From positions 18,189 to 82,188 of the forward strand of contig CAZVDD010000018.1 in NCBI GenBank assembly GCA_964626075.1: a stretch of DNA of 64,000 nucleotides, read 5' to 3'. The stretch is from an uncultured bacterium. GTDB taxonomy: Bacteria > Hydrothermota > Tepidihabitantia > Tepidihabitantales > Tepidihabitantaceae. The translations under genes were made by a program, and so were the position numbers. This document shows positions 5,102 through 63,373 of the stretch, in pieces (position 1 is the stretch's first letter; each line of letters starts with the position of its first letter). The notes below the pieces were generated by a model. That model was not told where the DNA came from. It saw only the letters and a list, made by a program, of their open reading frames with translations, and did no database searches.

Positions 5102-5102
5102 C

Positions 5103-5927: not shown

Positions 5928-5928
5928 A

Positions 5929-6216
5929 CTAATGCTCCAGCGCCTCAATCCTCTCGCCTTCTTTCAACTTAACTACCGCCTTTTTCCAGTCCGGTCGATG
6001 TCCCTCAAACATCCCCATCCGTCGCTTCTTGCCGGCAAAATTCATCACCCGCACCTCAGTCACATGTACTTTAAACATCTGCTCAACCGCCTGACGAATC
6101 TGATGCTTATTTGCATTCCGGCTCACGCGTAGCGTATAACTCCCCTCAGCCGCCTTGAGCCTTTCCGACTTTTCAGTAACAACAACACCTAAAATAATCT
6201 TAGTCGGGTCAATCAT
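5929..6216 (-). CDS. rplW: 50S ribosomal protein L23
   Basis: 95-aa L23-like sequence; synteny between L4 and L2. Confidence 0.88.
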   Translation of the reverse strand: MIDPTKIILGVVVTEKSERLKAAEGSYTLRVSRNANKHQIRQAVEQMFKVHVTEVRVMNFAGKKRRMGMFEGHRPDWKKAVVKLKEGERIEALEH

Positions 6217-6846: not shown

Positions 6847-6847
6847 C

Positions 6848-7468: not shown

Positions 7469-7788
7469 GCCGACTTTATCTCCACTTCTACCCCGGCAGG
7501 TACTTCAAGTTTCATCAAGGCATCCACCATCTCGGCAGTGGCGTTCGAAATCTCAATCAGCCGTTTATGGACTCGCAACTCAAACTGCTCCCGCGACTTC
7601 TTGTCTACATGAGGTGAACGCAAAACCGTAAAAAGGGTGCGCTTGGTTGGCAGCGGAATCGGGCCTGCCACCTGTGCACCGGTCCTCTTCGCTACATCAA
7701 CAATGTCGCGTGCCGACTGGTCAAGCAGTCGGTGGTCATAGGCTTTTAACTTTATCCTTATCTTTTTTGAACTTCTTAATACACTCAT
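7465..7788 (-). CDS. rpsJ: 30S ribosomal protein S10
   Basis: ...[40 protein letters not shown]... canonical S10; first gene of the cluster. Confidence 0.92.
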
Positions 7789-17437: not shown

Positions 17438-17892
17438 AGTTCACTCTTTGTGCCCTGCCGCTGCCAGTATATCAAGGTGCCAAGGGTGCCTTCCTTCTCC
17501 TTGACCAGGATGCAATACAACCCTTCATTCGCTTTTTCATCCTCTTTTATTTTCCGATAACTGTTTACTATTACCTGGTCAGAAAGTGAACTGCTGCATT
17601 CAACATCCAAAAACAGGTTTGCTACCCGCTCATCATAAAATTTCCGAACAACTGGTAACGAATCAGTTGTCCGAAAGACATAAAACCGGTTAATTTCTTT
17701 TTCGTCGGTTGAAGCAGAATAGTCAATTACACTGGCACCCGGATAGTTAAGTTCTGGCGGAAAATCGAGCAGGAAATCGCTCAATTGACTCTGACTTAGC
17801 CTGAACTTCTTTTCGACCTTTTTACTCGGGACGTTACTACAACTTAGCATAAGGATCGCACAAACGATTGGGACGATTACGGTGCCCTTCAT
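17434..17892 (-). CDS. Hypothetical lipoprotein
   Basis: 152 aa; signal peptide with lipobox-like LSCSN; precedes the BNR protein in the same orientation. Confidence 0.5.
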   Translation of the reverse strand: MKGTVIVPIVCAILMLSCSNVPSKKVEKKFRLSQSQLSDFLLDFPPELNYPGASVIDYSASTDEKEINRFYVFRTTDSLPVVRKFYDERVANLFLDVECSSSLSDQVIVNSYRKIKEDEKANEGLYCILVKEKEGTLGTLIYWQRQGTKSEL

Positions 17893-20534: not shown

Positions 20535-20543
20535 CGCCTTATT

Positions 20544-22079: not shown

Positions 22080-23934
22080 CGCTACCGGTAAAAACTGCCG
22101 CCGCTAATTTGAAAGAACTCTGGAGTGCACCGCTCGGACAAACAGGTAAACAGTTACCGCATCCCCGACAGCGCTGGTTGTCAACGACCGCAACCTGAAT
22201 ACCTGAATACCACACCTGCCTGCTAATCGCCTCATGGGGACAAATCTCAACACACCTTCCACATCCGCGACACAACTCCTTCTCTACTTTAACAACCAAA
22301 GGCTGAATTACCGCTGGAATTGTCTCGTTCCCTCTGCCGACATTAACTTGTAACTCCACCGCCAGTTCTTCAACATTATCGGGCAAAACAGTTTCCAGGG
22401 AATGAATCCGCATTATCACCGAATCAGATTTGTCAACAGTCTGGACTACCACCTGATGTTTCGGACAGGTCCGATGGCAGCGAATACATTCCCCACAAAA
22501 ACCACACCGTAAACAGCGCTCCGCCTCCTGAACCGCCTGCTCCGGTGTTAACGGTGCCTCAACCTCGGCAAAGATGTTTCGCTTTTCGGGCGCCAGGAGT
22601 CCTAACTTTACCCTGCTCTTGGGCACCGCGGTTAGAACCGGCACCTGAACTTCAAGTTGCACTTCAGAAACTGCTACCGTCTCATCTTGGTTGCTGATAA
22701 ATTTATGAATCGCCTTTGCACCCCGATGACCACTGGCGATGGCATCAATCACCGTTGCCGGGCCACTTGCCGCATCGCCCCCGACAAAAACCCCAACGGG
22801 CAATTGATTTACATCCTTTTCCACCTTCTGGCCCAGTGCGGTGATAACCCAATTAGCACCAATCACAAAAAGCGAATCCGGAATCGGTACCGGTTTTCTC
22901 CGCCCCGACTCATCGGGCGCGCCCAGCGTATTTCGGACACATTTCAATCCGGTAACCTTGCCATCCTTATAAACAAACTCTACCGGCTGGGTCAGATACT
23001 CAATTCTGACACCCTCTGCCTCTGCCTGGGAAATCTCCTCTTCATCGGCAGGCATTTCTGTTCTGCTTCGGCGGTAAACAATCCAAACCTCTTCAGCCCC
23101 TAACCGCTTTGCCACTCTTGCGGCGTCAATCGCCGAATTTCCACCGCCAATCACCAGCACCCTACCAAGCAAATTTTTAATATCACCGGAAAACGCCCTT
23201 TTCAAAAATGAAAGCGCATCAATCACTCCGGTAAGTTCATCCTCCAAAGCCAGCCCCAGAGTCAAGCTTTTCTGACAACCCGGAGCATAAAACACCGCCG
23301 CATAACCATCTTTTAGAAGTTGTGCCGGCTCGTCAATTTTTGTTCTGGTAAAAATTTCCACTCCCAATCCGAGAATGGAGTCAATCTCCTGTTCAATAAC
23401 CGACCGAGGCAGACGAAAAGGCGGAATACCCCATAACAGCATACCACCAGGTTTTTCCTGTGCCTCAAAAATCGTCACCTGATACCCTAACCGAATTAGG
23501 TCGTTTGCCGCAGTCAAACCCGCCGGACCAGCACCGACAACCGCCACGCGTTGCGGCTGTTTAACGGTGTCTTTTGGTAATGCCGCCTGGGGTTGATTGA
23601 CCGCATAATCGGCGATGAAACGTTTCAGGGCTCTGATTGCGACCGGTTCATCCAATTCCGCCCGACGGCACTCTTTCTCACAGGGATGGGTACAAACGCG
23701 GCCGCAGATTCCAGGAAAAGGATTGGTCTGTCGCACCACTTCCAGCGCCTGGACAAATTTGCCGGCGGCAATTAACCCAACATAAGCCTTGACATTAACA
23801 CCAGCCGGACAGGCAACCCGACAGGGCGACGGTGGCGCCGGCACGATTTGAAACTCCCGCTCCCCAACTCGTAAACTCGCCCCCTTCCCATAAAGCATCT
23901 CCTTGAAACTCAGCCGTTCCTTTGCCGTGTTCAC
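22069..23934 (-). CDS. GltD/NfnB/SudA-family NAD(P)H-dependent FAD oxidoreductase with C-terminal extra [4Fe-4S] ferredoxin domains
   Basis: N-terminal CRVACPAGVNV...ICGRVCTHPCEKEC Fe-S motif, two Rossmann motifs (VAVVGAGPAGLTAANDL; VLVIGGGNSAIDAA), C-terminal CRGCGRCVEICP/CRGCGNCLPVCP. Confidence 0.8.
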   Translation of the reverse strand: MNTAKERLSFKEMLYGKGASLRVGEREFQIVPAPPSPCRVACPAGVNVKAYVGLIAAGKFVQALEVVRQTNPFPGICGRVCTHPCEKECRRAELDEPVAIRALKRFIADYAVNQPQAALPKDTVKQPQRVAVVGAGPAGLTAANDLIRLGYQVTIFEAQEKPGGMLLWGIPPFRLPRSVIEQEIDSILGLGVEIFTRTKIDEPAQLLKDGYAAVFYAPGCQKSLTLGLALEDELTGVIDALSFLKRAFSGDIKNLLGRVLVIGGGNSAIDAARVAKRLGAEEVWIVYRRSRTEMPADEEEISQAEAEGVRIEYLTQPVEFVYKDGKVTGLKCVRNTLGAPDESGRRKPVPIPDSLFVIGANWVITALGQKVEKDVNQLPVGVFVGGDAASGPATVIDAIASGHRGAKAIHKFISNQDETVAVSEVQLEVQVPVLTAVPKSRVKLGLLAPEKRNIFAEVEAPLTPEQAVQEAERCLRCGFCGECIRCHRTCPKHQVVVQTVDKSDSVIMRIHSLETVLPDNVEELAVELQVNVGRGNETIPAVIQPLVVKVEKELCRGCGRCVEICPHEAISRQVWYSGIQVAVVDNQRCRGCGNCLPVCPSGALQSSFKLAAAVFTGSDGK

Positions 23935-24497
23935 GCCCGCCTCTTTTCTTTTCCAACCTGATACCCCTTCTCCAGCGCAATAAGATTTTTTTCCAGGAGT
24001 CGCGCCGGCAGTATGTCCTGAACCGCTTTAATTAGAGCCTCCTTGGGCACAATGCCGGTCACCGCAACCAAAAATCCAAGCATCACCATATTGGCATACA
24101 TCCGATTCCCAAGCCCCTCGGCAATTCTTGTCGCCGGAATGGCAAACTCCTTGACCCGGCCCAGGTGGTTATGCGGTCGTACCAGATTTTCCTCCCAGAT
24201 GAGCACGCCGTCATCCTTCAATGTGGGCTCAAACTTTTCATAGGCTTCTTGGGACATTGCCACTAAAATGTCCGGCGCTGTCAGATAAGGATAAAGCACC
24301 CGCTCCTCAGAAATAATCAACTGTGCCGAACAGGCACCCCCTCGCGCCTCGGGCCCGAAACTTTGCGTCAAGGTGGCATACTTATTATCATAAAGCGTTG
24401 CAGCACGGCCTAACACCATCCCCATCATTATAATGCCCTGGCCGCCAAATCCGGAAAGTTTAATCTCCATCTTCCATTGGTCCTTGATACGGGACAA
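23931..24497 (-). CDS. korC: 2-oxoacid:ferredoxin oxidoreductase gamma subunit
   Basis: 188 aa with GFGGQG pyruvate/ketoisovalerate oxidoreductase gamma-domain signature. Confidence 0.8.
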   Translation of the reverse strand: MSRIKDQWKMEIKLSGFGGQGIIMMGMVLGRAATLYDNKYATLTQSFGPEARGGACSAQLIISEERVLYPYLTAPDILVAMSQEAYEKFEPTLKDDGVLIWEENLVRPHNHLGRVKEFAIPATRIAEGLGNRMYANMVMLGFLVAVTGIVPKEALIKAVQDILPARLLEKNLIALEKGYQVGKEKRRA

Positions 24498-25350
24498 ACT
24501 TTTCGCCCACAGTCGTGCGCAAAAATTGGTTCATAATCTCGAGGTAAGTGGGCTGTTGCTTCTGAACAAACCTTCCAACAACGATTGGACCTTGATAGGT
24601 TATTTCGCACTCCCGGGTGTCAATATCGTTCCTGACGACCGACCTTTCCTTATAATACTTCACAATCTCAAGGCCCGAGCCCAACTGATTGCGCCGGCCA
24701 TAAACCGTCGGGCAGGGCGAAATCACCTCAACAAAACTGAATCCCGAGTGCATTAAAGCCTCTTTGAATGCTTGTGTCATCTGTCGGACATGAAGCACAG
24801 TCCAGCGTGCCACATAGGTTGCCCCGCAGGAGTCAACAAGAAATGGAATGTTAAACGGGTGCTCAAAACTGCCGTAAGGCGCCGTCGTCAACTTCGCGCC
24901 CTGGGGTGTCGTTGGGCCAAACTGACCGCCCGTCATCGCATAGTTGAAATTGTTTACACAGATTACGGTCAAATCCATATTGCGCCGCGCTGCATGAATA
25001 AGGTGGTTACCGCCAATCGACACCAAATCACCGTCGCCGGAGATAATCACCACCTTCAGTTGCGGATTGCCCAATTTTAAACCAATCGCAAACGGTATCG
25101 CCCGGCCATGGGTGGTGTGAAACGAATCAAGGTTTACATAACCAGCGGCGCGGCCCGTGCAACCGATACCGGACACAACTACCAAATCCTGCCGGGGAAT
25201 GGCACTCTCCCGCACCGCCGTCAGAAAAGAGTTCAAAACGATACCCAGACCACAGGTCGGACACCAGATATGGGGTATGCGGTCCACCCTTAACAGGTCG
25301 TCAAGCGGGTGCTGTTCCAGCCCGGCGATATTGACCGTCGCTTCACTCAT
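24460..25350 (-). CDS. korB: 2-oxoacid:ferredoxin oxidoreductase beta subunit (TPP-binding)
   Basis: GIGCTGRAAGY..GDGD TPP-binding motif, 296 aa. Confidence 0.85.
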   Translation of the reverse strand: MSEATVNIAGLEQHPLDDLLRVDRIPHIWCPTCGLGIVLNSFLTAVRESAIPRQDLVVVSGIGCTGRAAGYVNLDSFHTTHGRAIPFAIGLKLGNPQLKVVIISGDGDLVSIGGNHLIHAARRNMDLTVICVNNFNYAMTGGQFGPTTPQGAKLTTAPYGSFEHPFNIPFLVDSCGATYVARWTVLHVRQMTQAFKEALMHSGFSFVEVISPCPTVYGRRNQLGSGLEIVKYYKERSVVRNDIDTRECEITYQGPIVVGRFVQKQQPTYLEIMNQFLRTTVGEKFVPYQGPMEDGD

Positions 25351-26501
25351 CGCGCACTCTCCATTATCGCCTCAAAGATGTCTTTCGGGTCATGAACCCA
25401 ACCACCACAATGGGGAACATGTCGCGTCTGCGCCCAACCCCCCACCACCCTTTGCAGCTCCAGATACACCTGACCCAAATTTATCTCGGGCATAACAAAC
25501 GCCTTTACTCTCTTTGCCAGTTGTTTAATCTTACTTTCCGGGAAGGGCCAGACCGTAATCAACCGCAACATCCCGACCTTCACACCGCGTGCCCGGGCGT
25601 CTTCAATCGCCTTGAACGCCACCCGGGCACTGATTCCGTAAGCGACAACAACCACCTCGGCGTCGTTTAGTTGGTACTCATCTACGATAACTATTTTCTC
25701 CCGATTCTTGCGGATTTTTTCAACCAGATGGGTAACGCACCAGTTCTGACACTCGGCATTTATCACCGGATAACCCCGTTCATCATGGGTCAATCCGGTA
25801 ATATGAATCCGGTAATCCTTTCCTGCCCGGACCATCGCGGGTACACCATCCTCCTCGGGTTTAAAAGGGCGATACTGTTCTCGCGGACCACGATACCACC
25901 TTCTTGGTACCAAACGGATTTTATCTGGCTCCGGGATGACCACCTTTTCGGTCATATGGCCTACACATTCATCCATCATAAACAAAACCGGGACTCGGAA
26001 TTGCTCGGCGAAATTAAAACAGGTAATCGTCAAATCGAAACACTCCTGTGGTGAAGCCGGTGCCAGAGCGATAATCTCATAATCCCCGTGCGAACCCCAC
26101 CGGGCTTGCATCATATCTTGCTGCCCGGTTAAAGTGGGTAATCCAGTTGAAGGACCACCCCGCTGGACATTAACTACGACACAGGGGGTTTCAGTCATCA
26201 CCCCGAGCCCGATATTCTCCTGCATCAACGAAAAACCAGGACCCGAGGTAACAGTCATCGCTTTAGTTCCTGCCCATGCTGCGCCCAGCACCGCCGCAAT
26301 TGAAGCCAGTTCATCTTCCATCTGAATAAATGTACCGCCAACCATCGGGAACCGCTGGGCAATTCGTTCCGCAATCTCGGTGGAAGGGGTTATTGGGTAC
26401 CCGGCAAAAAAACGACAGCCAGCCGCAATCGCCCCCTCAGCACAGGCGTGGTCACCATCAAGAAAATGTGCTCCGGTCAGCACAACATCACTGTTCCTCA
26501 C
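25347..26501 (-). CDS. korA: 2-oxoacid:ferredoxin oxidoreductase alpha subunit
   Basis: 384 aa, FAGYPITPSTEI... canonical alpha-subunit N-terminus. Confidence 0.85.
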   Translation of the reverse strand: MRNSDVVLTGAHFLDGDHACAEGAIAAGCRFFAGYPITPSTEIAERIAQRFPMVGGTFIQMEDELASIAAVLGAAWAGTKAMTVTSGPGFSLMQENIGLGVMTETPCVVVNVQRGGPSTGLPTLTGQQDMMQARWGSHGDYEIIALAPASPQECFDLTITCFNFAEQFRVPVLFMMDECVGHMTEKVVIPEPDKIRLVPRRWYRGPREQYRPFKPEEDGVPAMVRAGKDYRIHITGLTHDERGYPVINAECQNWCVTHLVEKIRKNREKIVIVDEYQLNDAEVVVVAYGISARVAFKAIEDARARGVKVGMLRLITVWPFPESKIKQLAKRVKAFVMPEINLGQVYLELQRVVGGWAQTRHVPHCGGWVHDPKDIFEAIMESAR

Positions 26502-37541: not shown

Positions 37542-39143
37542 TTACAGATCTTTTCGTCGGGCGCGCCACCGTTTAACAACCCGCTCAAGGTCTGGATTAA
37601 GTAGACCCTCCCGCCACCAGCGGGAAAATTCAACATCACCGCTCTTTGGTTTAGGATTGGGTAAGTCAACCATCATCCGGGTTGGCATCGCTACCGCCTC
37701 ACCCAGAATCAACGCCTCTCCTGTCCTCAACGCCGGCAGCATATTCATCAAACCCGCCAGCGAATCGGGCACCAGACGACGAACATAATTCTGGTCATCA
37801 GGATTCGTAAGACGCATTGCAATAAATGTATTGCACTGGGAAAGAACCGTTTCGGAAAGTTCTTTGGGACGTTGACTGACAACAATCATTCCGATGCCGT
37901 ACTTCCTTCCCTCTTTAGTAATCCGTTCCACCGCACTTCTTGCCGCAGTGAATCGGCCATCGCTCCGAGATGGCACATAATTGTGCGCCTCTTCCAGGAC
38001 CAGAAGTATCGGAAACCGTTCTCGTTCCGGATTCCAGAGGTTAAACTCAAAAACCATCCGGGCAACGACCGCGACTACCACGCCAATCGCCTCAGAAGGA
38101 ACACCACTTAAATCTACTACCGTCATCTGGTGGGGCGCATTTATTGAAAGATAACTCTGGAGCAGTTCAATAAAACTTGCGCTGCTGGTGTAAGTACGGG
38201 GCTTGAACATAAAATTGTACCGCGGGTCAGAAAGTTTGCTGTCCAGTCGAATGAGGAATTTATCAAACACTCCATAAAGTGGACCTTCTTCCTGTTCACC
38301 CTGAGCGTTGTAGACCATCTGGATATTCCAATCGCGCAGCATTGAAACCATATCATCAAGGTCAAAGTAAACGGGCGAATCGGCTGTTATCGAAGAACCC
38401 AACCCCAACCGTTCTCTTGTATCCCACGCCTGCCGTGCTCGCATCAATGAATCGCGTAAAACAACAATCTGATTTTTCGCCGTCGGTTCGCTCATATCAA
38501 CGGTCAGGTCAACAAACTCTTCAAAGTTCAGCAGCCAGTAAGGTAATTCAACATTATCCGCCTGAATAAGGTTTACCTGCTCAGGAAATGCCGCGGCGTA
38601 TTCACCATGCAAATCGAGAACAACGATATGGGTGTTGCGATACTTCTCAATCGCCTCTTGTAAAATACTCACGACGGTACAGGACTTACCACAACCGGTT
38701 GTTCCCAGAACCGCGATGTGCTGCCCAAAGAACTTATCAACATTTATGTAAACCCGTTGATTCTCAGCACCACTCGGTTTGCCGAACGAGAATCCGTATT
38801 CAATAAACTCAGAAAATATATCATCAAGTTCGCTTTCATCAACCATCTGAACCCGTTGGCCAACATTGGGGTACACCGAAATACCCCGGACAAATTTTTT
38901 ATTTTGTTCAAGCGTACCCAGTAAGATGCAATCTGCCACCTTCCGGGAGTTTTTCCCGTTCTCCATTTTGATGCTTGACACCAATCCTATTACGCGGTAA
39001 TCCTGGAAAGATATTTTAACATAGGAACCCGGTTGTCCAGGATAATAACCGTTACTGAGCGGAACTGTTGTGTCCACAGTCAAATCAACCAGCGCCCGTT
39101 CACCATTGACTTCCGTGACATAACCAATATCAATCTGCCCCAC
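37542..39143 (-). CDS. HerA-like (DUF87, FtsK/HerA-superfamily) ATPase with N-terminal HAS-barrel-like domain
   Basis: Walker A GTTGCGKS, Walker B ILLVLEEAH, about 140-aa N-terminal beta-rich domain; 533 aa; no nuclease partner adjacent. Confidence 0.7.
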   Translation of the reverse strand: MGQIDIGYVTEVNGERALVDLTVDTTVPLSNGYYPGQPGSYVKISFQDYRVIGLVSSIKMENGKNSRKVADCILLGTLEQNKKFVRGISVYPNVGQRVQMVDESELDDIFSEFIEYGFSFGKPSGAENQRVYINVDKFFGQHIAVLGTTGCGKSCTVVSILQEAIEKYRNTHIVVLDLHGEYAAAFPEQVNLIQADNVELPYWLLNFEEFVDLTVDMSEPTAKNQIVVLRDSLMRARQAWDTRERLGLGSSITADSPVYFDLDDMVSMLRDWNIQMVYNAQGEQEEGPLYGVFDKFLIRLDSKLSDPRYNFMFKPRTYTSSASFIELLQSYLSINAPHQMTVVDLSGVPSEAIGVVVAVVARMVFEFNLWNPERERFPILLVLEEAHNYVPSRSDGRFTAARSAVERITKEGRKYGIGMIVVSQRPKELSETVLSQCNTFIAMRLTNPDDQNYVRRLVPDSLAGLMNMLPALRTGEALILGEAVAMPTRMMVDLPNPKPKSGDVEFSRWWREGLLNPDLERVVKRWRARRKDL

Positions 39144-41243: not shown

Positions 41244-42368
41244 TTAAAACCGGTAAGAAAAGGAAAACTTGTAGTTACTTGTCTGGAAATCATAGATGAA
41301 CTGGTCCACGCCAACGTCAAACTGAAATCGTTGAAACTCGATCCCGCCCCCGACGGTAAACCCCAGGGATTTGAATTTACCCAGACCACGCCGGGTTAAA
41401 ACATCCCAGAAACTGTAATGGTAAGTGCCCTGACCCTCGCGCTCAAAAACAAGTCCCCCCCTTTGACCGGTGATATCTTCAAAATACCCTGCCCGTAAAA
41501 ATCCGGCTACCGGTCCGAAACGAGCACCGCCTTCAACCCCAAAACTTTTCCAGGCGTCGCGCCACTCACTGGAAATTTGCTGGCCAAAAGTTTTAGTAGA
41601 ATCGGAAAACGCTCCTACCAGAATCTTGGAGAGCTCGGGCGTAATGCAGACAGAGAAAATCTCGTGTTTTAAAGGATAATAGGCTAAACCAAGCCGCAGC
41701 ATCCGGGGCAAAGGGTCCGATTCACCAGAAGAGGTATAAGAAATGTTCGGCCCAAGGTTAGCTACTGCCAACCCCACAGCGAGAAAGTCAAAAGGTTTGT
41801 AAAGCGCTCCAGCATCAAATGCCCAGGTAATGCCAGTTCCGCCTTGTTCAATCCCCAGTTCGGGCATCGCCTTCCAGACCCAATCCGGAACCAAAAAGGA
41901 GTAAATTAACTTAGCAGACAAACCCACACCTAAATTCGGCAAAACTGGAAAACCGTAAGCCACGGTAGGTGCGACATCAAATGTAGTATATCGACCCAGA
42001 AAATCACCCCGCTCATTTATCACATCGGTTTCACCGGTCGTAAGGTAAATGACATTAAACCCTGCGGTCCCGCGTTCTTGAATGGTGTGCGCAATCCCAA
42101 GATACTCATAGAACATCCCGGGCCAGAGTCCTGGTAACCAGTTACAATGCATCAAGGTGGCATTAGTTCTCTCAAGAAAAGCCAACCCACCGGGGTTGTA
42201 GTACACACTTGAAGCATCGTTGCTGATTGCGGTAAAGGCACCAGCGAGCGAAGTCGGCCGCGCTCCAGGCCAAATCATCAAGAAAACCGCACCGGGGTTC
42301 TGGCTGGCGTAAACTCCTATCGGACTGAGAACGAAAATCAAAGCCAGCCAGATAACTGTTCGTTTCAT
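41244..42368 (-). CDS. Outer-membrane beta-barrel protein, PorV/LptO-like (T9SS shuttle) or FadL-like
   Basis: Signal peptide, alternating amphipathic beta-strands, C-terminal aromatic (…FSFSYRF); immediately downstream of a C25 PorU-like gene, as porU-porV are in Bacteroidetes. Confidence 0.55.
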   Translation of the reverse strand: MKRTVIWLALIFVLSPIGVYASQNPGAVFLMIWPGARPTSLAGAFTAISNDASSVYYNPGGLAFLERTNATLMHCNWLPGLWPGMFYEYLGIAHTIQERGTAGFNVIYLTTGETDVINERGDFLGRYTTFDVAPTVAYGFPVLPNLGVGLSAKLIYSFLVPDWVWKAMPELGIEQGGTGITWAFDAGALYKPFDFLAVGLAVANLGPNISYTSSGESDPLPRMLRLGLAYYPLKHEIFSVCITPELSKILVGAFSDSTKTFGQQISSEWRDAWKSFGVEGGARFGPVAGFLRAGYFEDITGQRGGLVFEREGQGTYHYSFWDVLTRRGLGKFKSLGFTVGGGIEFQRFQFDVGVDQFIYDFQTSNYKFSFSYRF

Positions 42369-42434
42369 TGCAATACCTCCTTAAACATAACTACTACCTT
42401 AAAAGTATAAATAGTTACCTGCGATGGTCAACAA

Positions 42435-45400
42435 TTAACGAACTATAAGAAACTTCTCCCTAACCATGACACGCTCGCCGTAACCGTCCGGGTATAAAAC
42501 TTTTGCCCGCAGGGTAAACAGATAAACGCCGTTGGGCAAAAGAAACCCATCCTGGTCCCTTCCGTCCCAGGTAATCTGGTTGTAACCCCAACTGGCTGGA
42601 AAATCTCCCAAATTACGCACCAACCTGCCGCTCAGCGTGTAGATACGAATTTGGACCGTTCCCGCTTGACTCATAACGAAACCAAACACCGCACCCTGCT
42701 TCACCGGATTAGGATAAACGGTAATTGAATCCACGCAAAGAACTCGGGAGTAAAATGGCTTTAAAATCAATTTTGTCGTTGTACGGTTGAGAAAGTTGTC
42801 GGCAACAACAACGAATAAAGTATCAACCGGTCCGCTCAAATTTAACTGAATCCGTGCCCGGGCCAGAGAGTAAGAACTGTCGTCAAATACAAAGTTGTCG
42901 CTGAGCTCAACCGGCGTTAATGGTTGATTGAGATAAAAATGGGGTGCGAAACCCGGAACTGGAGCAATCAGAATACCAGACTGGTCTGAAGCAACGATAT
43001 CAAGCGGTAAATTTGCCGGCACAGTGGCACTGTCCAGCAATCGGCGTCCCCCACAATACAAACAAACTTGCGGACCGGTGTTATCACCTCGGTTTAATAA
43101 CATACTGTTCCAGGAGATGTTACCATCAATTAAGCCCAGATTCTTTATTGCGCCTTTAACCTGAGCACTGAATCGGCAGGAGTTAGCAAGCGGTGCGTAA
43201 TAGCCATTACCCGCCCACACCGTATCAAGCGGTACACCAACCGGTAAGATTCCTTCACAGTAAAACCTGCCATCTTTGACCCGAAATGAACCGCGCGCCA
43301 ATTCATCGCCTAAAATAAAGTATTGAACAAAACCCACCGGTGATTCATAATAACGGGAGCGCATCGGGCCAAATAATCGCCATTCGGCATTACCATCAGC
43401 CAAATCAACAATCGTTTGTGCCCGAAACAATGTACCAGGTTGCAGCGTCTCTGGAGAGATACGCAAATTCTGGGTGGACATCGTTGGTAAATTGAGGACT
43501 GTTGCCGGGTCGCCAAAAAGATGATAGCTTCGATCAGTTACCCAGGCTTTAAAGAAACAGTAGCCCACAGTCCTTATGCTCTCCGGAGGGAAAAACAGCG
43601 GCGTCAATAGATTGCGCGCGAAGACAAGATTGTTTCCGGAAGGTGTCGCCGTTGAAGATGCCACTGTCGCCAGTGCCCCACCCGGCATTCGAACCAACTC
43701 TTCTGCAATGCACTCAGACCGGGTATCGTCAAACCGTCCGACCGAACAACTGCCAAAAAAACAGAACGGGACACGATTCTGATTGTCAATTTCAGAAACC
43801 CGGGCTACGGTCAAAACCTCTTCATGGGTCAGAGAGTACGCCGAGCCATGACCAAAAAACAACCAAATTAACGCCCCGCGATTCAACTGTCGCAAAAGTT
43901 CTCTGTTGGCTTGGGGTTTACTTTTGGAACCGAGAAAGGGGAACTCTGTGAGATAAATTTTTACCGGGTCGAGACGATTTCCCACCAGTGCTACCATACC
44001 CTCGCATTGCTCAATATGTCTGAAGCGCAACTCATCAGGCCGGTCCGGATAGCGCTGATATTCGTCGTCTGCCAGTAAAAGCAACCTTCTCGTCCAGTAT
44101 CCATTACTACCCGTCTCGTAAGCAATCAACTTGTCAACGAACCGCCTCGCTTCGCTTTCACTTCTCACACAAACCCGGCCCAGGATAAGGTCCGGACTGC
44201 CACCTTCACCTTCCAAATCAGCATACCACACATCCTGAGCCAGGGCACTACGGTCTCCGGCATCAGGAATTAGCCCGAATCCAAACTCATAAGGAGGAAC
44301 ACCCGATGGCTGAACTCGGTTGAGGTTGTTTCTGTAATCGTAGGTCCCATCACCGACCAGGAGCGCATATACCGGACGCTTGATTTGAAAGAAACGTTTG
44401 ATCGCCCCCGGCTCCTTCATCCCGTAACCGAAGTCGTCGTAAATCTCCTGAAGATTAACCACCCGAACCCGAGCATTAGGAATACCGGAGACCCGATTGA
44501 AACGAAAACGGGCGAGCTCCTGCATCGATTGCATTAATTCCGGTGGAGTTACTATCCAGTAATCAGCCAGAAATGTCTCATCCCATAGAGAACCCGGTGA
44601 TTTCACCTGAATATCTTTGGGCTTCAACAACTGCTCAGGAGTGGCAATAACAAATTCGGTCCATCCATGCAACCGCCGGCTGAACAACACACTGTCACCC
44701 CGTTTTTCCACCCCGAAACACAGCGCCGGAGCGTACGGGTCGGTAACATCCAGAACAACCGGTACCGCACCCGCGTCCTGAATTAAAAATTGGTAGTCGC
44801 CAACGGTATCTACAAAGAAGTTGCACGGTCCGTTAAACAGAGACAACCGACAGGAATACTTGACCACAAGATAGTCAAGATAAACTTTCTTCTCACCGCT
44901 GCCCCGCAATTCAATCGTCAGCTGATTATCACGAAAAGCCACCGGACCTACCGAATCAATAGAAAAATCGTAAGGGCTGGGATAGGAGCTGGAACCGAAC
45001 TGAAAGTTAGTTAGTACCCTCCCGTTTAAGCGAATTGTTATTTCATTACTCGGCGAAGCATTGTAAAGCCGACCTGAAATCTGGTGAACTTTTATCGGAT
45101 ATTTTAGCTCAAGCGGACAGGAAAACTGAGCAACACCGGCATCCGCTGCTTTAAATATCGTTGACCAGACCCACATCAAACCCGCTCGAGCTGGGCACTC
45201 CCGGTCCAACTCCTGATGAAGCACAACCCGTCCGGTGTTAACAACTGTTGTGCCGGAAGTATCCGGGCCAAATCCGCGCCGCATTCTCTTGCCGGTAAAA
45301 CCGGTCCAGGTAAGCCAGTAGACATTATCTCTGGTGTATAAATTCTTCACCCAGACAGAGCATTTGTTAATCCAGTGGTCTGGTGCCAACCCATAAAAAA

Positions 45401-46436
45401 TTATCGTGTCATTAAGGTCGAATTGCCCATCATCGTCGCCGGTAACCGCAATCGCAACCGGCAGCAACGAATCAGGATAAGAACGGTTGGGCTCATGTTC
45501 ACCAACTGTCCAGAGTGCTAATGATTGCGGATTCAACCCCCGAATTGGCACACCTGCTTGTGCCAGTTCTGCCCCGGTGATACGATAAATACCGGTGGTG
45601 TCGACCGTTATTTTCAACCACTGCGAAGAACGGCGATAAGGGTTCAAAATGGAAAAACTGCTTTTGTAATTTAACTTCCAATTTCTTGCCTGCTCGCCAT
45701 TTAAAAGCATCCCGGCAATCAAATCATCAAGCGGGTCAGGAGAAAAGTTAACTCCCGGGGGTGTTTGGAAATGCACGACCACCTTTACCTCATCGAACCA
45801 GACCAACCTTCTTCTATCGGGCTGGTATTGCGCCGGGTAAATTTTCAAAGTTACAAACCGGACATCGCGCATCACCTCTATTTGCCCCACCTCCACAACC
45901 GAATCTGGATAAAGCGACCGTTCCTCTTTCTCCCAACCGCGCCAGACCGAATCTCCCTCAAATAAAACATAAGGAATACGTCCAAGGATGAAATTTTCTT
46001 TTGCCCCACCTATTTTTGTGCCGAATTCAACCTTAATGCCACCACTCTGCGGCACACCAATGCGTACAACCTTTGCTGGCAGATCGTAGTCGCCCAAAAA
46101 AGCGACCGGTTCAGCATCAGGAAACTCAAGAAGACTTCCCCTTTTATCATCACTCGTTACCGGTTCCCCAGGACGATAAATAAATCTAACACCACGCTGG
46201 TCAGAGTCAAGAACCTGAATTTCCGCCTTAAGATAGCCGGAAAAAAGAGTCAGAACGAGCAATATTAATTTAAAATAGCGATGCACCAGTAAGAAGTAGT
46301 TTATTTTAATGTTCCAATAAGTCAAATCTAAATTTACCTTGAACTGGCAAACAGTCCTTGACCTATTTAATTTGAACTTTATACTCATTTCAATAAATGG
46401 CGACTCGTCCGAGATACCGTAACATTTTAAAGGCAC
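42435..46436 (-). CDS. Gingipain-family (peptidase C25) protein, PorU-like candidate T9SS C-terminal signal peptidase, with C-terminal T9SS-type sorting domain; true start likely downstream of the first Met
   Basis: C25 catalytic-region motifs YALLVGDGTYDY, ...LIWLFFGHGSAYS (His) and PFCFFGSCSVGRFDD (Cys); hydrophobic signal-like segment KLILLVLTLFSGYLKA about 60 aa into the ORF; C-terminal ...VYPNPVKQGAVFGF...GVYLFTLRA sorting-domain-like region. Confidence 0.65.
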   Translation of the reverse strand: MPLKCYGISDESPFIEMSIKFKLNRSRTVCQFKVNLDLTYWNIKINYFLLVHRYFKLILLVLTLFSGYLKAEIQVLDSDQRGVRFIYRPGEPVTSDDKRGSLLEFPDAEPVAFLGDYDLPAKVVRIGVPQSGGIKVEFGTKIGGAKENFILGRIPYVLFEGDSVWRGWEKEERSLYPDSVVEVGQIEVMRDVRFVTLKIYPAQYQPDRRRLVWFDEVKVVVHFQTPPGVNFSPDPLDDLIAGMLLNGEQARNWKLNYKSSFSILNPYRRSSQWLKITVDTTGIYRITGAELAQAGVPIRGLNPQSLALWTVGEHEPNRSYPDSLLPVAIAVTGDDDGQFDLNDTIIFYGLAPDHWINKCSVWVKNLYTRDNVYWLTWTGFTGKRMRRGFGPDTSGTTVVNTGRVVLHQELDRECPARAGLMWVWSTIFKAADAGVAQFSCPLELKYPIKVHQISGRLYNASPSNEITIRLNGRVLTNFQFGSSSYPSPYDFSIDSVGPVAFRDNQLTIELRGSGEKKVYLDYLVVKYSCRLSLFNGPCNFFVDTVGDYQFLIQDAGAVPVVLDVTDPYAPALCFGVEKRGDSVLFSRRLHGWTEFVIATPEQLLKPKDIQVKSPGSLWDETFLADYWIVTPPELMQSMQELARFRFNRVSGIPNARVRVVNLQEIYDDFGYGMKEPGAIKRFFQIKRPVYALLVGDGTYDYRNNLNRVQPSGVPPYEFGFGLIPDAGDRSALAQDVWYADLEGEGGSPDLILGRVCVRSESEARRFVDKLIAYETGSNGYWTRRLLLLADDEYQRYPDRPDELRFRHIEQCEGMVALVGNRLDPVKIYLTEFPFLGSKSKPQANRELLRQLNRGALIWLFFGHGSAYSLTHEEVLTVARVSEIDNQNRVPFCFFGSCSVGRFDDTRSECIAEELVRMPGGALATVASSTATPSGNNLVFARNLLTPLFFPPESIRTVGYCFFKAWVTDRSYHLFGDPATVLNLPTMSTQNLRISPETLQPGTLFRAQTIVDLADGNAEWRLFGPMRSRYYESPVGFVQYFILGDELARGSFRVKDGRFYCEGILPVGVPLDTVWAGNGYYAPLANSCRFSAQVKGAIKNLGLIDGNISWNSMLLNRGDNTGPQVCLYCGGRRLLDSATVPANLPLDIVASDQSGILIAPVPGFAPHFYLNQPLTPVELSDNFVFDDSSYSLARARIQLNLSGPVDTLFVVVADNFLNRTTTKLILKPFYSRVLCVDSITVYPNPVKQGAVFGFVMSQAGTVQIRIYTLSGRLVRNLGDFPASWGYNQITWDGRDQDGFLLPNGVYLFTLRAKVLYPDGYGERVMVREKFLIVR

Positions 46437-57141: not shown

Positions 57142-59328
57142 TCAGGGCTTGATTAACTTGATAAGTCGATAGAACTGATTGTTATCCCGGCACAACTCAA
57201 CAAACTCGTCAATCGGGTTAACGTCCACACAAAACAAACCCTCTGCTTCGTGAACGGCATCAATTAAAGGGATTTCAAAGGTCAAAGTTGAAGATTTTTG
57301 CGGCTCGAGCATCAATTGCCTTGCCGGCAACATCGTATCGGTAAGAACAATATTGTTCAGGTAAAACCTGACACGACAACCTGAACCGCCCAAATACATC
57401 CGATTTCCGATGTTTCGCAACCTTATCTTCCCGGTTAACTTTTCACCAACCCGGGGCAAATCCGGGATGAACTGAACATCGTCAACAACTAAATCCGGCC
57501 CTCGAGGCGCCGAACGCTCCCGGATAAAAACAGGCCGCACCCCGAGATTCAAATTCAGCCCGCCATCTGTTTCGGCTTTTACTATCTCAACTGATGGGTC
57601 GTCATCGTAAGCCAAAGGTATTAACTCCACCGTATCACAGCCAACCGGCAGCCTTATCTGAATTGTCTTTTTCTTATCTCTCCCGGTAATTTGATTTAGC
57701 CAGGCAATCCAGAGCCGCTTACCGCTCAAGGGCTCTTCGAACTCGTACACCCGCACCGCATCGATTGGGCAGTCGTTTAAAATCAACCTTTGATTAAACC
57801 GCTTGCCTTTTAACATCCTAAATGTTTGGGCAAGTGCGTAATAACCCGCTTTGGTCTCAAATGATGGGGTGTGAAGACCGTAACTGCCCTCCACCGATTC
57901 ACCCCGGGATAGAAACGAGTAATAACAAATCCGGTCATAACCACCACCGGGTAAACATTGACTCGCCCGGGCAACCGCAAAAACCCTCGCGACCCAGTTT
58001 GCCTGTTCTTGGCTATCGCACTCACCGTTGGGCAGCAAACAGGGCAAGCCGACTTCGGTTATCCACAATTCGCCATAATCGCCGTTTTCTCTCATAACCA
58101 CCCGCATACTTTCTGCCTGCGCCTCAAAAAGGTTGAAATCAAAACCCCGGTCCTGATAAGGATGAAACGACACTCCACACCACAATTTTTGGGGGATTAG
58201 TCGATAGCAGTAACTGAGCATCTCATCGGGTAGTATCCGGGTAAAAATCGACGGTTGCATTGCCACAAGCGAGCCAATCAGCACCTTAGCCTTGCCCTGG
58301 GTTATTGAATCTATCACTGTAAGAGCCACCTCAACCAGGCGGGCGTAAAGCGAGCACAACCCCTGCCGGTTATCGCTCAGGTGGTAATCAAACTGGGGCG
58401 CCTTCCAGAACCTTACGGTATCGTTTGGTTCATTCCATATCTCATAAACATCGATTAGCTTCCAATCGTTATAGTAATGTCTCACTACACCCTCAACATA
58501 CCTTGCCCAGTAATTGGAAGGGTGCCAGACATCCAAAAAGAGATTGCGGGGCGGACTGAATTCCGGAGCGTCAAAACGGGTGCCGGCCCAGATTGCGCTG
58601 TAATCAAGAATCCCGATTACCTTACAGCCCATTGTCTTGCTGGAATAGAAAACCGCCGGGTCTAACTGCGCAAAGTCAAAACCGGCCGTAGAATCAGGCC
58701 AGACCCAATTCCAAAGCAAATCGATGCGGTCTAAGTGAACACCCGCAGCGCGTACCCGTTGGTGCACATCCTGTTTGTGAGCAAAAACGGTATCGTACGC
58801 CGAAATCAACACACCCCACCAACTACTGTCAATTACTCCCATCACCCCATACACCCTCATACACAGATCAAGCGATTCCGCTGCGTCACTGTACAACAGG
58901 GTGCCGTATCGATAAGGGTTACCGGCGTCGTAATAAAACTGAATTGAGTCTGGTCCGGCACGGCTGAACCGTAACTCGTAGCGTTTGCCCCGGGTGAAAC
59001 CGAACCGCCTGTTCCAGTTCTCAAACCGGACCCAACTGTGGCTTCGTTTCTGAACACCGCTACTCCCCATCACCAATTTGTCACCATCCCAAACTTCAAC
59101 CCGGTAACGGCTCCCAATGCCATTCGCACCGGCAAACAACTCCACATACACCAGACTGTCAAAATTGCTGACGATGGTCTGGGAAACATACCTGTTAGCG
59201 CCGGTGCGCCGGGTCCAGCCTGACCAGTCGGACCGAACCGGCTTCACCTCATAAGACTTTACCATACCCGGGGCGGGAATAAAAAAACAAACCAACAATC
59301 CCAACACAATCTTAGTTTGTCGGGTCAT
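57142..59328 (-). CDS. Secreted glycoside hydrolase, GH5-like (TIM barrel) with C-terminal CARDB-like domain
   Basis: Signal peptide; EIWNEPN acid/base motif and WITEVG nucleophile motif; C-terminal LVVDDVQFIPDLPRVGEKLTGKIRLRNIGN CARDB-like region. Confidence 0.65.
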   Translation of the reverse strand: MTRQTKIVLGLLVCFFIPAPGMVKSYEVKPVRSDWSGWTRRTGANRYVSQTIVSNFDSLVYVELFAGANGIGSRYRVEVWDGDKLVMGSSGVQKRSHSWVRFENWNRRFGFTRGKRYELRFSRAGPDSIQFYYDAGNPYRYGTLLYSDAAESLDLCMRVYGVMGVIDSSWWGVLISAYDTVFAHKQDVHQRVRAAGVHLDRIDLLWNWVWPDSTAGFDFAQLDPAVFYSSKTMGCKVIGILDYSAIWAGTRFDAPEFSPPRNLFLDVWHPSNYWARYVEGVVRHYYNDWKLIDVYEIWNEPNDTVRFWKAPQFDYHLSDNRQGLCSLYARLVEVALTVIDSITQGKAKVLIGSLVAMQPSIFTRILPDEMLSYCYRLIPQKLWCGVSFHPYQDRGFDFNLFEAQAESMRVVMRENGDYGELWITEVGLPCLLPNGECDSQEQANWVARVFAVARASQCLPGGGYDRICYYSFLSRGESVEGSYGLHTPSFETKAGYYALAQTFRMLKGKRFNQRLILNDCPIDAVRVYEFEEPLSGKRLWIAWLNQITGRDKKKTIQIRLPVGCDTVELIPLAYDDDPSVEIVKAETDGGLNLNLGVRPVFIRERSAPRGPDLVVDDVQFIPDLPRVGEKLTGKIRLRNIGNRMYLGGSGCRVRFYLNNIVLTDTMLPARQLMLEPQKSSTLTFEIPLIDAVHEAEGLFCVDVNPIDEFVELCRDNNQFYRLIKLIKP

Positions 59329-60765: not shown

Positions 60766-61662
60766 ATGAATTACGACTCAGATTTTTGTTATATCCGCTC
60801 GGTTGACTATCCCGACGGTGCCATCATACCGAAAAAAATTGCCCGGATTTCGCCTGATGACCGGGGGTTTTACTTTGCAGACGGTGTTTATGAAGTTATC
60901 CGTACCTACCAGGGCAAACTCTTCCACTTTCCCGACCATCTAACACGGTTTAAGAACAGTTTACAGGCGGTGCGGATTGGTCTCCCGGATGTCGATGGCA
61001 TTGAGAAAATTTGCTCCAAACTACTCCGCTACAACAACCTGTCAAATGCCGACACCTTTTTTTACATTCAGGTAACACGGGGTGTTGCTGCCCGTAACCT
61101 TCTTTTTCCGCCAGAGGCAACAATACCCACCCTCTACATTTCGGTAACACCAATTACCCCACCCATTACCGAACAAAAAGATGGCATCAAGGTAATCACC
61201 GTGCCGGATATCCGCTGGCACCGCTGTGACATCAAGGCGATTGGACTCTTACCCAGCGTCCTTGCCCGCCAGACCGCGGCGGAAGCCAATGCCCAGGAAG
61301 CGATATTTGTACGCAACGGTAATGTTACCGAAGGCACCCACACCAATCTGTTTGGTGTTAAACAAAAGACGGTTATCACCCACCCCCTTGACAGTCATAT
61401 TCTGCCCGGTATCACCCGGATTGTCCTAATGAAGCTTTGTACCCGGCTCCGGCTGCCCGTAATTGAATCACCACTCCCGGAACCGGAACTGTATCAACTG
61501 GACGAACTGTTTGTTACCAGCACTACCTGGGAGGTTGTACCGGTGATTGAGGTCAACCGGAAACCAATCGGTTCCGGTAAACCCGGTGTCGTTACCCGGC
61601 AACTGCAGGCGGAGTTCAAAAATTATGTTCAGGAAATTTTTACCGAGCGCAGTTCTGCTTGA
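60766..61662 (+). CDS. Class IV PLP-dependent aminotransferase (branched-chain/D-amino-acid aminotransferase or aminodeoxychorismate lyase family)
   Basis: FYFADGVYEVIR motif and fold-type IV sequence; 298 aa. Confidence 0.7.
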   Translation: MNYDSDFCYIRSVDYPDGAIIPKKIARISPDDRGFYFADGVYEVIRTYQGKLFHFPDHLTRFKNSLQAVRIGLPDVDGIEKICSKLLRYNNLSNADTFFYIQVTRGVAARNLLFPPEATIPTLYISVTPITPPITEQKDGIKVITVPDIRWHRCDIKAIGLLPSVLARQTAAEANAQEAIFVRNGNVTEGTHTNLFGVKQKTVITHPLDSHILPGITRIVLMKLCTRLRLPVIESPLPEPELYQLDELFVTSTTWEVVPVIEVNRKPIGSGKPGVVTRQLQAEFKNYVQEIFTERSSA

Positions 61663-61696
61663 CCGCTCACCGCAATCGGGCTACACTGATTGTGGT

Positions 61697-63373
61697 ATGA
61701 AAATGGCAAGGGTTATGACCTTCCTGATGGTACTGTTGCTCGGCTCCGCCCAAAGCCAGATTCCCTTACCGACCGCACCCGATTGGAGTTCAATCGACAC
61801 CGACTATTCGACCGGCGGCGCCTTCGCCGACATTGACGGCAACGGTTATTTGGACTTCTGCATTTCCAACGGCAATGATATGGCAGCCGACCCCAATGCC
61901 GTATATTTCAATCAAAATGGCAACCTTGAAACAAACGCCTCCTGGCGCTCCACCGACTTGGGTTATTTTGGTCACTGTTATACCGGCGATATCGATAACG
62001 ATGGCGACCAGGATTTTGTGGTCGCCTACCTCGGCGACTACCAGCATCCGAGCGAACTGCACGTCCGGGTCTACCGTAACACCGGTACCGGCCTCGAACC
62101 GCTCCCTTTTTGGAAGGCAAAAGACTCGGTCTCTTCCTTTGACTGCTGTCTCGGTGACTTTGACCTTGATGGTGACCTTGACCTTGCCATCAGTGCCGGT
62201 GATGCCTATCGCGGCGCGATGGACCGGGTGCGGATTTACCGCAACAATAACGGCGTATTCGACTCCCTGCCCTTCTGGTACGCAAAACTTGATACCGCCT
62301 CGGATGCAATCCGATTTGCTGACATCGACAACGACGGCGACCTCGACCTGTTCGTGGGCCACCGGCGCAAGGTGGTGATGTACCGCAACAACAACGGTTC
62401 TTTTGATACTATTCCCGAATGGGTTGTGCGCCGTGCAATCGGCTGGGTTTTGCGTCTTGAACTGGGTGATTACGACCAGGATGGCTATCTTGACCTTGCG
62501 GTCGCCTCCAACGACCAGCTTGGCGACCCGAACAGCATCAAAGTTTTCCACAACAATCAGGGCACACTGGACACGGTTGCCGCATATACGATGCAAACCC
62601 GGGGCACGCAACTTTACTCCTCCTGCGTTGCCTGGGGCGATGTGAATGGCGACGGATTTCCCGAACTTGCCGCCGGTGGTTGGTGGCAACCGGTAGTGGT
62701 GTATCTCAACCGCTGCGGTGTCCTTGACACCACACCATCCTGGTCCTGGTCCCCCGCCAACCCGAGCAATCTAGTTTGCGAAGCATTGCTCTGGACCGAT
62801 GTCCGCAACTGCCACCTCGCTTCCGTCACTGAACGCCATAATGGCGACGGTATCCGAAAACTCTTTAACTTCACAAAACGGCCGATTCAATTCCTCGACA
62901 GTGTTAAGGTAAACGACACAATTGTCCCGCGCGCTGCGTACTGTTACGACCGCCATCTCGGCTGGTGCAGTTTTGCCACCCCACCTTCTTTGGGAACTGA
63001 CAATGTTGTATTCTACTACCATTACGCCACCACTCCGGACCTCGCCGTTACCAACTGGGCGCGCACTGCCGGCAACCATCTTTTCTTGAACACCACGCCG
63101 ACCGCGATTGCTCAAAATCAACCATCAAGCAAGCCGGTTCTCCATAAACTTATCGTCCATCCCAATCCCGCATCCGGACCGGTTTTGCTCACCACTTTTG
63201 GACCATTACCAGCAACCGTTGACATCTTTTCTCAGGATGGCAGGTTAATCGAAAAACTAATTATCAAGCACAGTTCGCCCGTCCGGTACAATCGCAACCT
63301 ACCCAACGGCGTTTACTTTATCACCGCTCCTGGTTACCAGCCGGTGAAACTATTGCGGTTGGAAAGTAAATAA
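61697..63373 (+). CDS. Secreted FG-GAP/VCBS repeat protein with T9SS-type C-terminal sorting domain
   Basis: Signal peptide MKMARVMTFLMVLLLGSAQS; repeated DxDxDGxxD calcium-binding FG-GAP motifs (DIDGNGYLD, DIDNDGDQD, DFDLDGDLD, DIDNDGDLD, DYDQDGYLD, DVNGDGFPE); C-terminal ...VYFITAPGYQPVKLLRLESK sorting-domain-like region. Confidence 0.7.
   Translation: MKMARVMTFLMVLLLGSAQSQIPLPTAPDWSSIDTDYSTGGAFADIDGNGYLDFCISNGNDMAADPNAVYFNQNGNLETNASWRSTDLGYFGHCYTGDIDNDGDQDFVVAYLGDYQHPSELHVRVYRNTGTGLEPLPFWKAKDSVSSFDCCLGDFDLDGDLDLAISAGDAYRGAMDRVRIYRNNNGVFDSLPFWYAKLDTASDAIRFADIDNDGDLDLFVGHRRKVVMYRNNNGSFDTIPEWVVRRAIGWVLRLELGDYDQDGYLDLAVASNDQLGDPNSIKVFHNNQGTLDTVAAYTMQTRGTQLYSSCVAWGDVNGDGFPELAAGGWWQPVVVYLNRCGVLDTTPSWSWSPANPSNLVCEALLWTDVRNCHLASVTERHNGDGIRKLFNFTKRPIQFLDSVKVNDTIVPRAAYCYDRHLGWCSFATPPSLGTDNVVFYYHYATTPDLAVTNWARTAGNHLFLNTTPTAIAQNQPSSKPVLHKLIVHPNPASGPVLLTTFGPLPATVDIFSQDGRLIEKLIIKHSSPVRYNRNLPNGVYFITAPGYQPVKLLRLESK

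Follow-up and report, generated by a model that had tools for sequence, protein, structure and literature searches.

The T9SS (type IX secretion system) is described in reviews as a feature of the whole Fibrobacteres-Chlorobi-Bacteroidetes (FCB) superphylum (PMC11205867, PMC12398890), and the described components closest to those considered here come from Porphyromonas gingivalis and Flavobacterium johnsoniae. PorU of P. gingivalis (PG0026; PDB 6ZA2) is a multi-domain C25 cysteine peptidase that bears its own C-terminal sorting domain (CTD) of the uncleaved type, and its gene lies immediately upstream of porV. PorV of F. johnsoniae, the equivalent of PorV/LptO in P. gingivalis, is a FadL-like beta-barrel known from its complexes with SprA (6H3I, 8GL6). 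Type-A CTDs (TIGR04183/PF18962), such as those of RgpB, PorZ and RemA, stand at the extreme C-terminus, and in P. gingivalis both the glycine of the beta3-beta4 loop motif and a basic C-terminal motif are needed for secretion (PMC11285876). Here we analyse a stretch of 64,000 nucleotides from contig CAZVDD010000018.1 (the window) in which a porU-like gene is followed by a porV-like gene and accompanied by two further genes whose products end in CTD-like tails. We consider it likely that this locus is the cargo-shuttle and attachment module of a T9SS in a bacterium of candidate division WOR-3.

By sequence match and by predicted fold, the large protein of this pair is of the PorU type and not a generic secreted C25 protease. 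It matches the PorU equivalog model of NCBIfam (NF033707) at 422.1 bits against a cut-off of 420, over model positions 4-1077 of 1095, and because this margin is thin we sought independent tests of its identity in sequence and in fold. Its best sequence match in the PDB is 6ZA2 (E 1.4e-16), with gingipain R at E 0.01. An AlphaFold2 model covering residues 100-1296 (pLDDT 88.4) has 6ZA2 as its top Foldseek match (E 1.4e-54 over ~1200 columns), whereas RgpB and Kgp match the catalytic portion only (E 1e-18 to 1e-14, ~530-560 columns). The catalytic His826 is kept in 73/73 homologs and Cys860 in 72/73, and the tail of the protein aligns with residues 1056-1142 of P. gingivalis PorU (6ZA2), the CTD of that protein. 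The equivalog match, the sequence match to 6ZA2, the conserved dyad and the full-length fold match are our grounds for the assignment. In its full-length architecture, its aligned His and Cys, its own C-terminal CTD of the uncleaved type and the position of its gene immediately upstream of porV, the protein resembles P. gingivalis PorU; it differs in being only ~17-25% identical and ~140 aa longer, in the Propeptide_C25-like N-terminal domain that Pfam detects in it, and in its WOR-3 anaerobe host. By analogy, its putative function would be the removal of the CTD from cargo, which in some species goes together with attachment to a glycolipid.

The original prediction, made from the sequence alone, had described a gingipain-family protein of 1333 aa with C25 His/Cys motifs. 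The motifs stand (GHG and GSC, within a PF01364 domain); the length has to be revised. A product of 1333 aa is the maximal open reading frame (ORF), read from a GTG at 46436, whereas a TTG at 46325 is the start chosen by the gene callers in four independent assemblies and used in every close homolog. This start gives 1296 aa and a normal N-terminal signal peptide, and it also abolishes an overlap with the divergent gene for an ABC permease, whose start is at 46397.

The second protein is, on its modelled fold and its gene context, a PorV-like barrel. It is encoded 66 nt downstream of the peptidase, on the same minus strand, and its aromatic C-terminus (...SFSYRF) had been recognised correctly from the sequence. 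The PorV/PorQ family model NF033709 matches it at 156.8 bits against a cut-off of 90 and spans residues 27-372 of 374. In Foldseek searches with an AlphaFold2 model built on 42 sequences (pLDDT 83.8), the first and second ranks are the PorV chains 8GL6_F (E 1.7e-16, TM 0.66) and 6H3I_F (E 1.2e-14, TM 0.58), and FadL-type barrels rank after them at E 1e-10. The N-terminal PorV signature GAVFL..W....R....G ... NPGG is invariant in the 42 sequences, and among the best 120 database matches the barrel is 53-95% identical across WOR-3; GenBank names the near-identical barrels "PorV/PorQ family protein". The barrel thus shares with F. johnsoniae PorV the FadL-like fold and an alignable conserved N-terminal segment, and differs from it in being 16-17% identical and in scoring below the PorV equivalog model, so that strict orthology by the curated model is not reached. 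The family searches that the original prediction had proposed therefore bore it out with NF033707 and NF033709 and failed to do so with the PorV equivalog NF033710.

The order porU then porV, which had been likened to that of Porphyromonas, holds for genes whose products are PorU and PorV homologs by family models, PDB match and fold, and it is conserved among relatives. We collected 80 related metagenome loci (0.92 Mb) by PorV alignment, 43 of which are informative for synteny in having at least 4.2 kb upstream of porV. By script, porU lies immediately upstream of porV in 24/43 of these, and in 26/43 when L055 and L056 are added by inspection; restricting the count to loci with a PorV of 65% identity or more gives 22/24. 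The order is also kept in 4 species-representative genomes. In the window porV is followed by purA after a 14-nt gap and then by a cobW-family GTPase gene after a 10-nt gap; L009, L011 and L013 likewise continue from porU-porV into purA and cobW (L008 ends inside porV), and this core-genome position is common to most related loci. No terminator-like site was found between porU and porV. Further afield, the order recurs in a genome of the Melioribacteraceae (Ignavibacteriota) and in one other lineage, each time followed by a Por_Secre_tail cargo gene, and one more distant PorU homolog has no adjoining porV. The window shares the porU-porV order with the Melioribacteraceae cluster and differs from it in that its cargo genes lie 25 and 15 kb from the pair instead of adjoining it; the WOR-3 pair sits in a housekeeping block (purA, cobW), usually after a lineage-specific gene pair, here called c0/c1.

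This conservation bears directly on the possibility that the large protein is a secreted gingipain-like protease, itself a cargo, that the barrel is a FadL-type substrate channel, and that their adjacency is incidental. Such a reading can appeal to the C25 catalytic and propeptide domains, to the marginal score with the PorU model and to the strength of the structural matches to FadL-family barrels (E 1e-10). It is nevertheless highly improbable: the full-length architecture is that of PorU and not of gingipains, PorV chains rank above FadL, the PorV/PorQ family model is cleared by 67 bits, and the adjacency is kept across WOR-3 and into Ignavibacteriota, with most related loci holding it at the porU-porV-purA-cobW position.

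The third part of the proposed module is the tail itself. The PorU, BNR and FG-GAP proteins of the window end in a tail of 70-95 aa with the pattern PNP...I(F/Y)xxxGR...LPxGVY and a K/R-rich end, in keeping with the ~80-aa sorting-domain-like ends that had been noted on the same three proteins. Sequence comparison makes it a solid conclusion that the three tails are homologous to each other and type-A-CTD-like. A hidden Markov model (HMM) built from 69 PorU-homolog tails and run on 406 window ORFs found the BNR tail (E 3.7e-12) and ranked the FG-GAP tail next; no further ORF among the 406 has such a tail. The tails of 118 FG-GAP orthologs align with the PorU tails at an hhalign probability of 98.7% (E 1.6e-16), PF18962 (Por_Secre_tail) has a precomputed match in 10/120 of the orthologs, and several orthologs carry the name T9SS type A sorting domain-containing protein. 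The window FG-GAP tail lacks the WDGRD loop that its orthologs and PorU have. A fourth CTD protein, an SBBP/delta-60-repeat beta-propeller, is encoded ~3-5 kb beyond the right edge of the window on the same genome, the contig and the window sharing 99.988% identity in an overlap of 16.9 kb (L006 1-1446, plus strand; ~67.2-68.7 kb on the window scale, minus strand), and scores 41.6 bits with TIGR04183 against the cut-off of 23, over the whole model and ending one residue before its C-terminus. This makes four CTD-tailed proteins in about 65 genes. All tails have both the glycine of the beta3-beta4 loop and the basic C-terminal motif, and they share with described type-A CTDs the extreme C-terminal position and the PNP, xxxGR, GxY and basic motifs. 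The features of the locus are collected in Table 1.

Table 1. Coordinates (window scale), strand and supporting evidence for the features of the porU-porV locus and its putative cargo
Feature	Position	Strand	Evidence
porU-like gene for a C25 cysteine peptidase of 1296 aa, putatively the C-terminal signal peptidase/sortase of the T9SS	42435-46325	-	NF033707, fold, catalytic dyad
Propeptide_C25-like N-terminal domain of PorU, aa 38-189 of 1296	45759-46214	-	PF08126 E 1.6e-8, 34.4 bits vs 22
Peptidase_C25 catalytic domain of PorU, aa 589-944	43494-44561	-	PF01364 E 1.1e-63
PorU catalytic His826, GHG motif	codon 43848-43850	-	aligned with GHG of 6ZA2
PorU catalytic Cys860, GSC motif	codon 43746-43748	-	aligned with ATC of 6ZA2
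C-terminal type-A sorting domain of PorU itself, aa 1203-1296	42438-42719	-	TIGR04183 24.7 vs 23; FlgD_ig 38.3 vs 27
porU-porV spacer, 66 nt, with AAGGAGG ribosome-binding site and promoter-like TTGACC-16-TATACT	42369-42434	-	consensus matches only
porV-like gene, 374-aa outer-membrane beta-barrel, PorV/PorQ family	41244-42368	-	NF033709; Foldseek
BNR/sialidase-like beta-propeller, putative cargo	15878-17437	-	BNR_2 E 8e-16; FlgD_ig 33.5 vs 27
CTD-like tail of BNR protein	15881-16120	-	PorU-tail HMM E 3.7e-12
FG-GAP/VCBS repeat protein, putative cargo	61625-63373	+	FG-GAP_3 E 2.6e-39
CTD-like tail of FG-GAP protein	63155-63370	+	ortholog tails vs PorU tails, hhalign 98.7%
Small lipoprotein gene, lipobox-like N-terminus MKGTVIVPIVCAILMLSCSN, no family match	17434-17892	-	overlaps BNR gene start by 4 nt

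Several observations weigh against our reading, and they touch each of its parts. The PorU cut-off is cleared by 2 bits only, and the near-identical GenBank proteins go without the PorU name: the member of the cluster at least 90% identical to the window protein (1283 aa) is called 'T9SS type A sorting domain-containing protein' only, and the name PorU appears on a 69%-identical homolog. The barrel scores 87.1 against the 250 required by the PorV equivalog NF033710, and likewise 56.8 against the 220 of the PorQ equivalog; in some WOR-3 lineages porV has no adjoining porU. The TIGR04183 search proposed in the original prediction was borne out for the PorU tail (24.7 bits against 23) and not for the FG-GAP and BNR tails (22.1 and 16.5), so two of the three window tails fall under the curated cut-off, in which these two differ from described type-A CTDs. 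The tail fold is moreover generic. FlgD_ig (PF13860) outscores TIGR04183 (PorU tail 38.3, BNR tail 33.5, against 27), and a profile of the three tails matches 92,702 of 1.84 billion cluster representatives, the best of which carry 4-23 internal tandem copies. Finally, none of porK/L/M/N, sov/sprA, porT, porP and porW was found in the 64-kb window, whose sizeable ORFs were annotated with Pfam/NCBIfam or precomputed Pfam matches. In the ~0.9 Mb of flanks of the 80 loci (limited to 10 kb) the annotation covered neighbours that recur and ORFs of 1000 aa or more, most single-copy neighbours being left unannotated; it gave housekeeping genes, c0/c1, a GT2 glycosyltransferase, rmlD, dnaE and TamB and no T9SS core gene. 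The largest ORF in these flanks has 1472 aa, and SprA/Sov proteins are well over 2000 aa long.

The tail scores could mean that the tails are ordinary FlgD-type immunoglobulin-like (Ig-like) domains with a structural or adhesive role, and that the BNR and FG-GAP proteins are periplasmic or exported by another route. PF13860 matches the PorU and BNR tails where TIGR04183 leaves the BNR and FG-GAP tails below its cut-off, the same fold occurs as internal tandem repeats in thousands of proteins, and FlgD Ig domains are among the best PDB matches. A sorting tail can be told from a plain Ig-like module by an end-to-end match at the C-terminus. With a profile of four tails, the solved T9SS CTDs match over positions ~2-84, at or no more than ~10 residues from the chain C-terminus (PorU E 2e-6, PorZ 7e-4, two F. 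johnsoniae cargo CTDs in translocon complexes 0.01-0.04), whereas FlgD Ig domains match the profile core only, positions 19-73. The CTDs of mirolase and the gingipains match only in part and without significance (E 0.3-0.7), likewise at the C-terminus; the search of cluster representatives is uninformative on C-terminal position, as its best 150 matches are dominated by giant multi-copy proteins. The tails are, in addition, always the last residues of their proteins and end in the basic motif, FG-GAP orthologs match PF18962 and are named T9SS type A, the neighbouring SBBP protein scores far above the TIGR04183 cut-off, and PorU carries the same tail, as does P. gingivalis PorU (PMC11285876). 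We therefore regard the ordinary Ig-like reading as very unlikely. The original prediction had allowed that the tails might score as unrelated Ig-like domains, and this came half true: they do score as FlgD-type, with matches in very many proteins, and only bona fide T9SS CTDs match them near end to end at the C-terminus. The FlgD_ig match assigns the tails to a common Ig-like superfamily; on flagellar function it has no bearing.

We hypothesize that the locus would work as follows. Sec would export the cargo (the BNR propeller, the FG-GAP protein, the SBBP propeller and PorU itself) to the periplasm, where an outer-membrane translocon would recognise the ~75-95-aa Ig-like type-A CTD. The PorV barrel would then bind the emerging CTD and carry the cargo to surface-exposed PorU, whose His826/Cys860 dyad would cut the CTD, leaving the cargo to be released or transferred to a surface glycolipid. 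This scheme builds on homologs of PorU and PorV in sequence and fold, a conserved adjacency, an intact dyad and tails homologous to solved CTDs; the order of events, the cleavage of the CTD and any anchoring are proposed by analogy with the P. gingivalis and F. johnsoniae systems. Because PorU, PorV and CTD proteins co-occur here, as they do in Bacteroidota together with the core genes (PMC11285876), we infer that a complete T9SS, including the Sov/SprA translocon and the PorKLMN motor, would be encoded elsewhere in the genome.

The main alternative to a complete system is a reduced or rewired one, in which PorU, PorV and CTD cargo are kept, the canonical Sov/SprA and/or PorKLMN are absent, and the cargo crosses the outer membrane by another route. 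The candidate for that route is the c0/c1 pair. In 28/80 loci c0, c1, porU and porV are collinear on one strand. The c0/c1 pair, which directly precedes porU (or porV), lies for example at L017 1968-6042, L009 5421-9441 and L060 4181-8315. In the c0 protein (~960 aa) a peptidase domain of the MA type (Peptidase_MA_2) is joined to a PD40/TolB propeller and a barrel of the Omp85 type. The c1 product, a lipoprotein of ~408 aa, matches no family. Both are absent from the window, where divergent ABC permease genes occupy their place; the window lineage has lost the linkage of c0/c1 to porU. We also considered c1 as a diverged T9SS part and rejected this. A profile of 15 sequences searched against all PDB chains gave a weak match to the SecDF P1-head only (E 0.0046), and Pfam gave none.

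A reduced system would account for the lack of core genes in the window and the annotated related flanks, and c0 has both an Omp85 barrel and a place beside porU/porV even where PorU is 30% identical. WOR-3 bacteria have small genomes (contigs measure 1.15 and 1.8 Mb), the first isolate is non-motile (PMC12285271), and T9SS is mentioned neither in the paper on that isolate nor in a survey of 181 WOR-3 metagenome-assembled genomes (MAGs). However, a few percent of a genome is too small a sample for an absence to mean much. T9SS core genes are usually unlinked to porU/porV in Bacteroidota. The conserved block is otherwise a housekeeping one (fpg, isoaspartyl peptidase, purA, cobW), so that the c0/c1-porU linkage may reflect no more than a gene order inherited within one phylum; in the window neither c0 nor c1 lies beside porU, c1 matches no solved T9SS part, and the very strong conservation of PorV fits a conserved partner such as SprA. 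On balance a reduced system is unlikely, and its specific form, a stripped-down CTD sorting in WOR-3 without Sov/SprA and/or PorKLMN in which c0 and c1 take part in outer-membrane passage, is quite unlikely.

Two window proteins of no recognised family were considered as hidden T9SS parts and rejected. A 519-aa protein (11885-13444), with no family match, has no sequence match in the PDB. A 728-aa protein (57142-59328, minus strand) has a signal peptide and no Pfam/NCBIfam match, and its sole match to a solved structure in a PDB sequence search is a weak one to the uncharacterised 5JVK (E 7.8e-4). The C-terminus of 5JVK in turn matches the CTD tail profile weakly and without significance (E 0.14).

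A complete T9SS in this bacterium, our preferred reading, would leave the finding correct and ordinary. The original prediction of a T9SS signature outside classical Bacteroidetes is true and unsurprising, since the reviews cited above treat the system as FCB-wide. Public annotation pipelines (NCBI) already label these proteins, and for both reasons the interest is low: the module is a known one, recognised here in a lineage for which it has gone undiscussed. Within the literature open to search, we found no paper linking WOR-3 with T9SS or type IX secretion. The 181-MAG survey and the first-isolate paper (PMC12285271) make no mention of a PorU/PorV module or of T9SS, and no gld, spr or por gene names occur in the supplements of the 181-MAG study. 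The isolate paper does report an outer membrane and a lack of motility for the lineage. WOR-3, a widespread and mostly uncultured phylum whose first isolate came only in 2025, thus joins the lineages carrying a PorU/PorV sorting module together with CTD-tagged surface or secreted proteins. As an annotation this is of use in predictions of the WOR-3 surface proteome, which here would include a sialidase-like propeller and repeat proteins of the FG-GAP and SBBP types. Knowledge of T9SS itself is unchanged, and the locus would matter to it only if complete genomes proved to lack the translocon and motor.

The assignment of the host rests on its proteins. For both the C25 peptidase and the barrel, the closest named homologs belong to candidate division WOR-3, WOR-3 MAG contigs as long as 1.8 Mb encode near-identical proteins of the same 90% cluster, and we accordingly place the host in WOR-3, within the FCB group and outside Bacteroidota. 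The window is ordinary core chromosome, with a ribosomal protein operon, ClpXP and trigger factor. It also encodes a 2-oxoacid:ferredoxin oxidoreductase, Hdr/Mvh-like proteins, rubrerythrin and desulfoferrodoxin, a set that fits an anaerobe; the description of the host as a non-Bacteroidetes anaerobe has therefore held up.

Among the putative cargo genes, the member of the cluster at least 90% identical to the BNR protein (518 aa) is named exo-alpha-sialidase in GenBank, and the near-identical FG-GAP protein there bears the T9SS type A sorting domain name. The start of the FG-GAP gene is uncertain: gene callers place it at 61625, and a start at 61697 would put the signal peptide at the N-terminus. 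The small lipoprotein gene is probably co-transcribed with the BNR gene, and its product only possibly belongs to the secretion system.

The surroundings of porV vary among relatives. In one WOR-3 sub-lineage (L060-L071) a GT2 glycosyltransferase gene (c5; for example L060 8315-9838) lies between c1 and porV, with no porU there, and in another (L062/L069/L070) rmlD, for dTDP-rhamnose synthesis (c7; for example L062 5646-6482), directly precedes porV. These neighbours give a weak hint that PorV may be linked to a surface glycan, or they are a coincidence. Two paralogs of the PorV family occur together in one genome, 75% (L020) and 52% (L091) identical to the window barrel and both encoded on the 504-kb contig Ga0209102_1000001. 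The second adjoins dnaE, duplicated small membrane proteins, a YidD-like gene and TPR proteins; we considered it as half of a PorQ/PorZ pair and found no support, its neighbours not being PorZ-like. Matches to the PorZ model in the window itself arise through the shared CTD only.

The remainder of the window holds a few observations of its own. A compact redox cluster (17982-26501, minus strand) comprises subunits of the 2-oxoacid:ferredoxin oxidoreductase, a GltD-like NAD(P)-binding Fe-S flavoprotein and an HdrC/HdrB-like CCG protein with an MvhD domain. An HdrA-like protein of the same cluster apparently comes in two pieces, an FAD part of 197 aa and a part of 647 aa that ends in MvhD and a zinc ribbon. 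A HerA/DUF87-type ATPase gene (37542-39143, minus strand) partially matches the anti-phage-associated HerA model (424 against 850 bits); no NurA or other partner gene is evident beside it, and its position after cobW is kept in several relatives. The S10/spc ribosomal protein operon (424-7788, minus strand) runs from S10 through L6 and then ends, with S17 (2945-3184) and a Zn-type S14 (1523-1726) both overlooked by the gene caller. After L6 come a tRNA-Glu(CTC) at 424-500 and a FabH-like gene, in place of L18, S5, L30, L15 and SecY. Rfam and tRNA scans of the window returned two tRNAs and nothing else. Most genes lie on the minus strand and the GC skew is negative in all 2-kb bins (-0.03 to -0.28), which would fit a window that lies entirely on a single replichore and has the minus strand as its leading strand.

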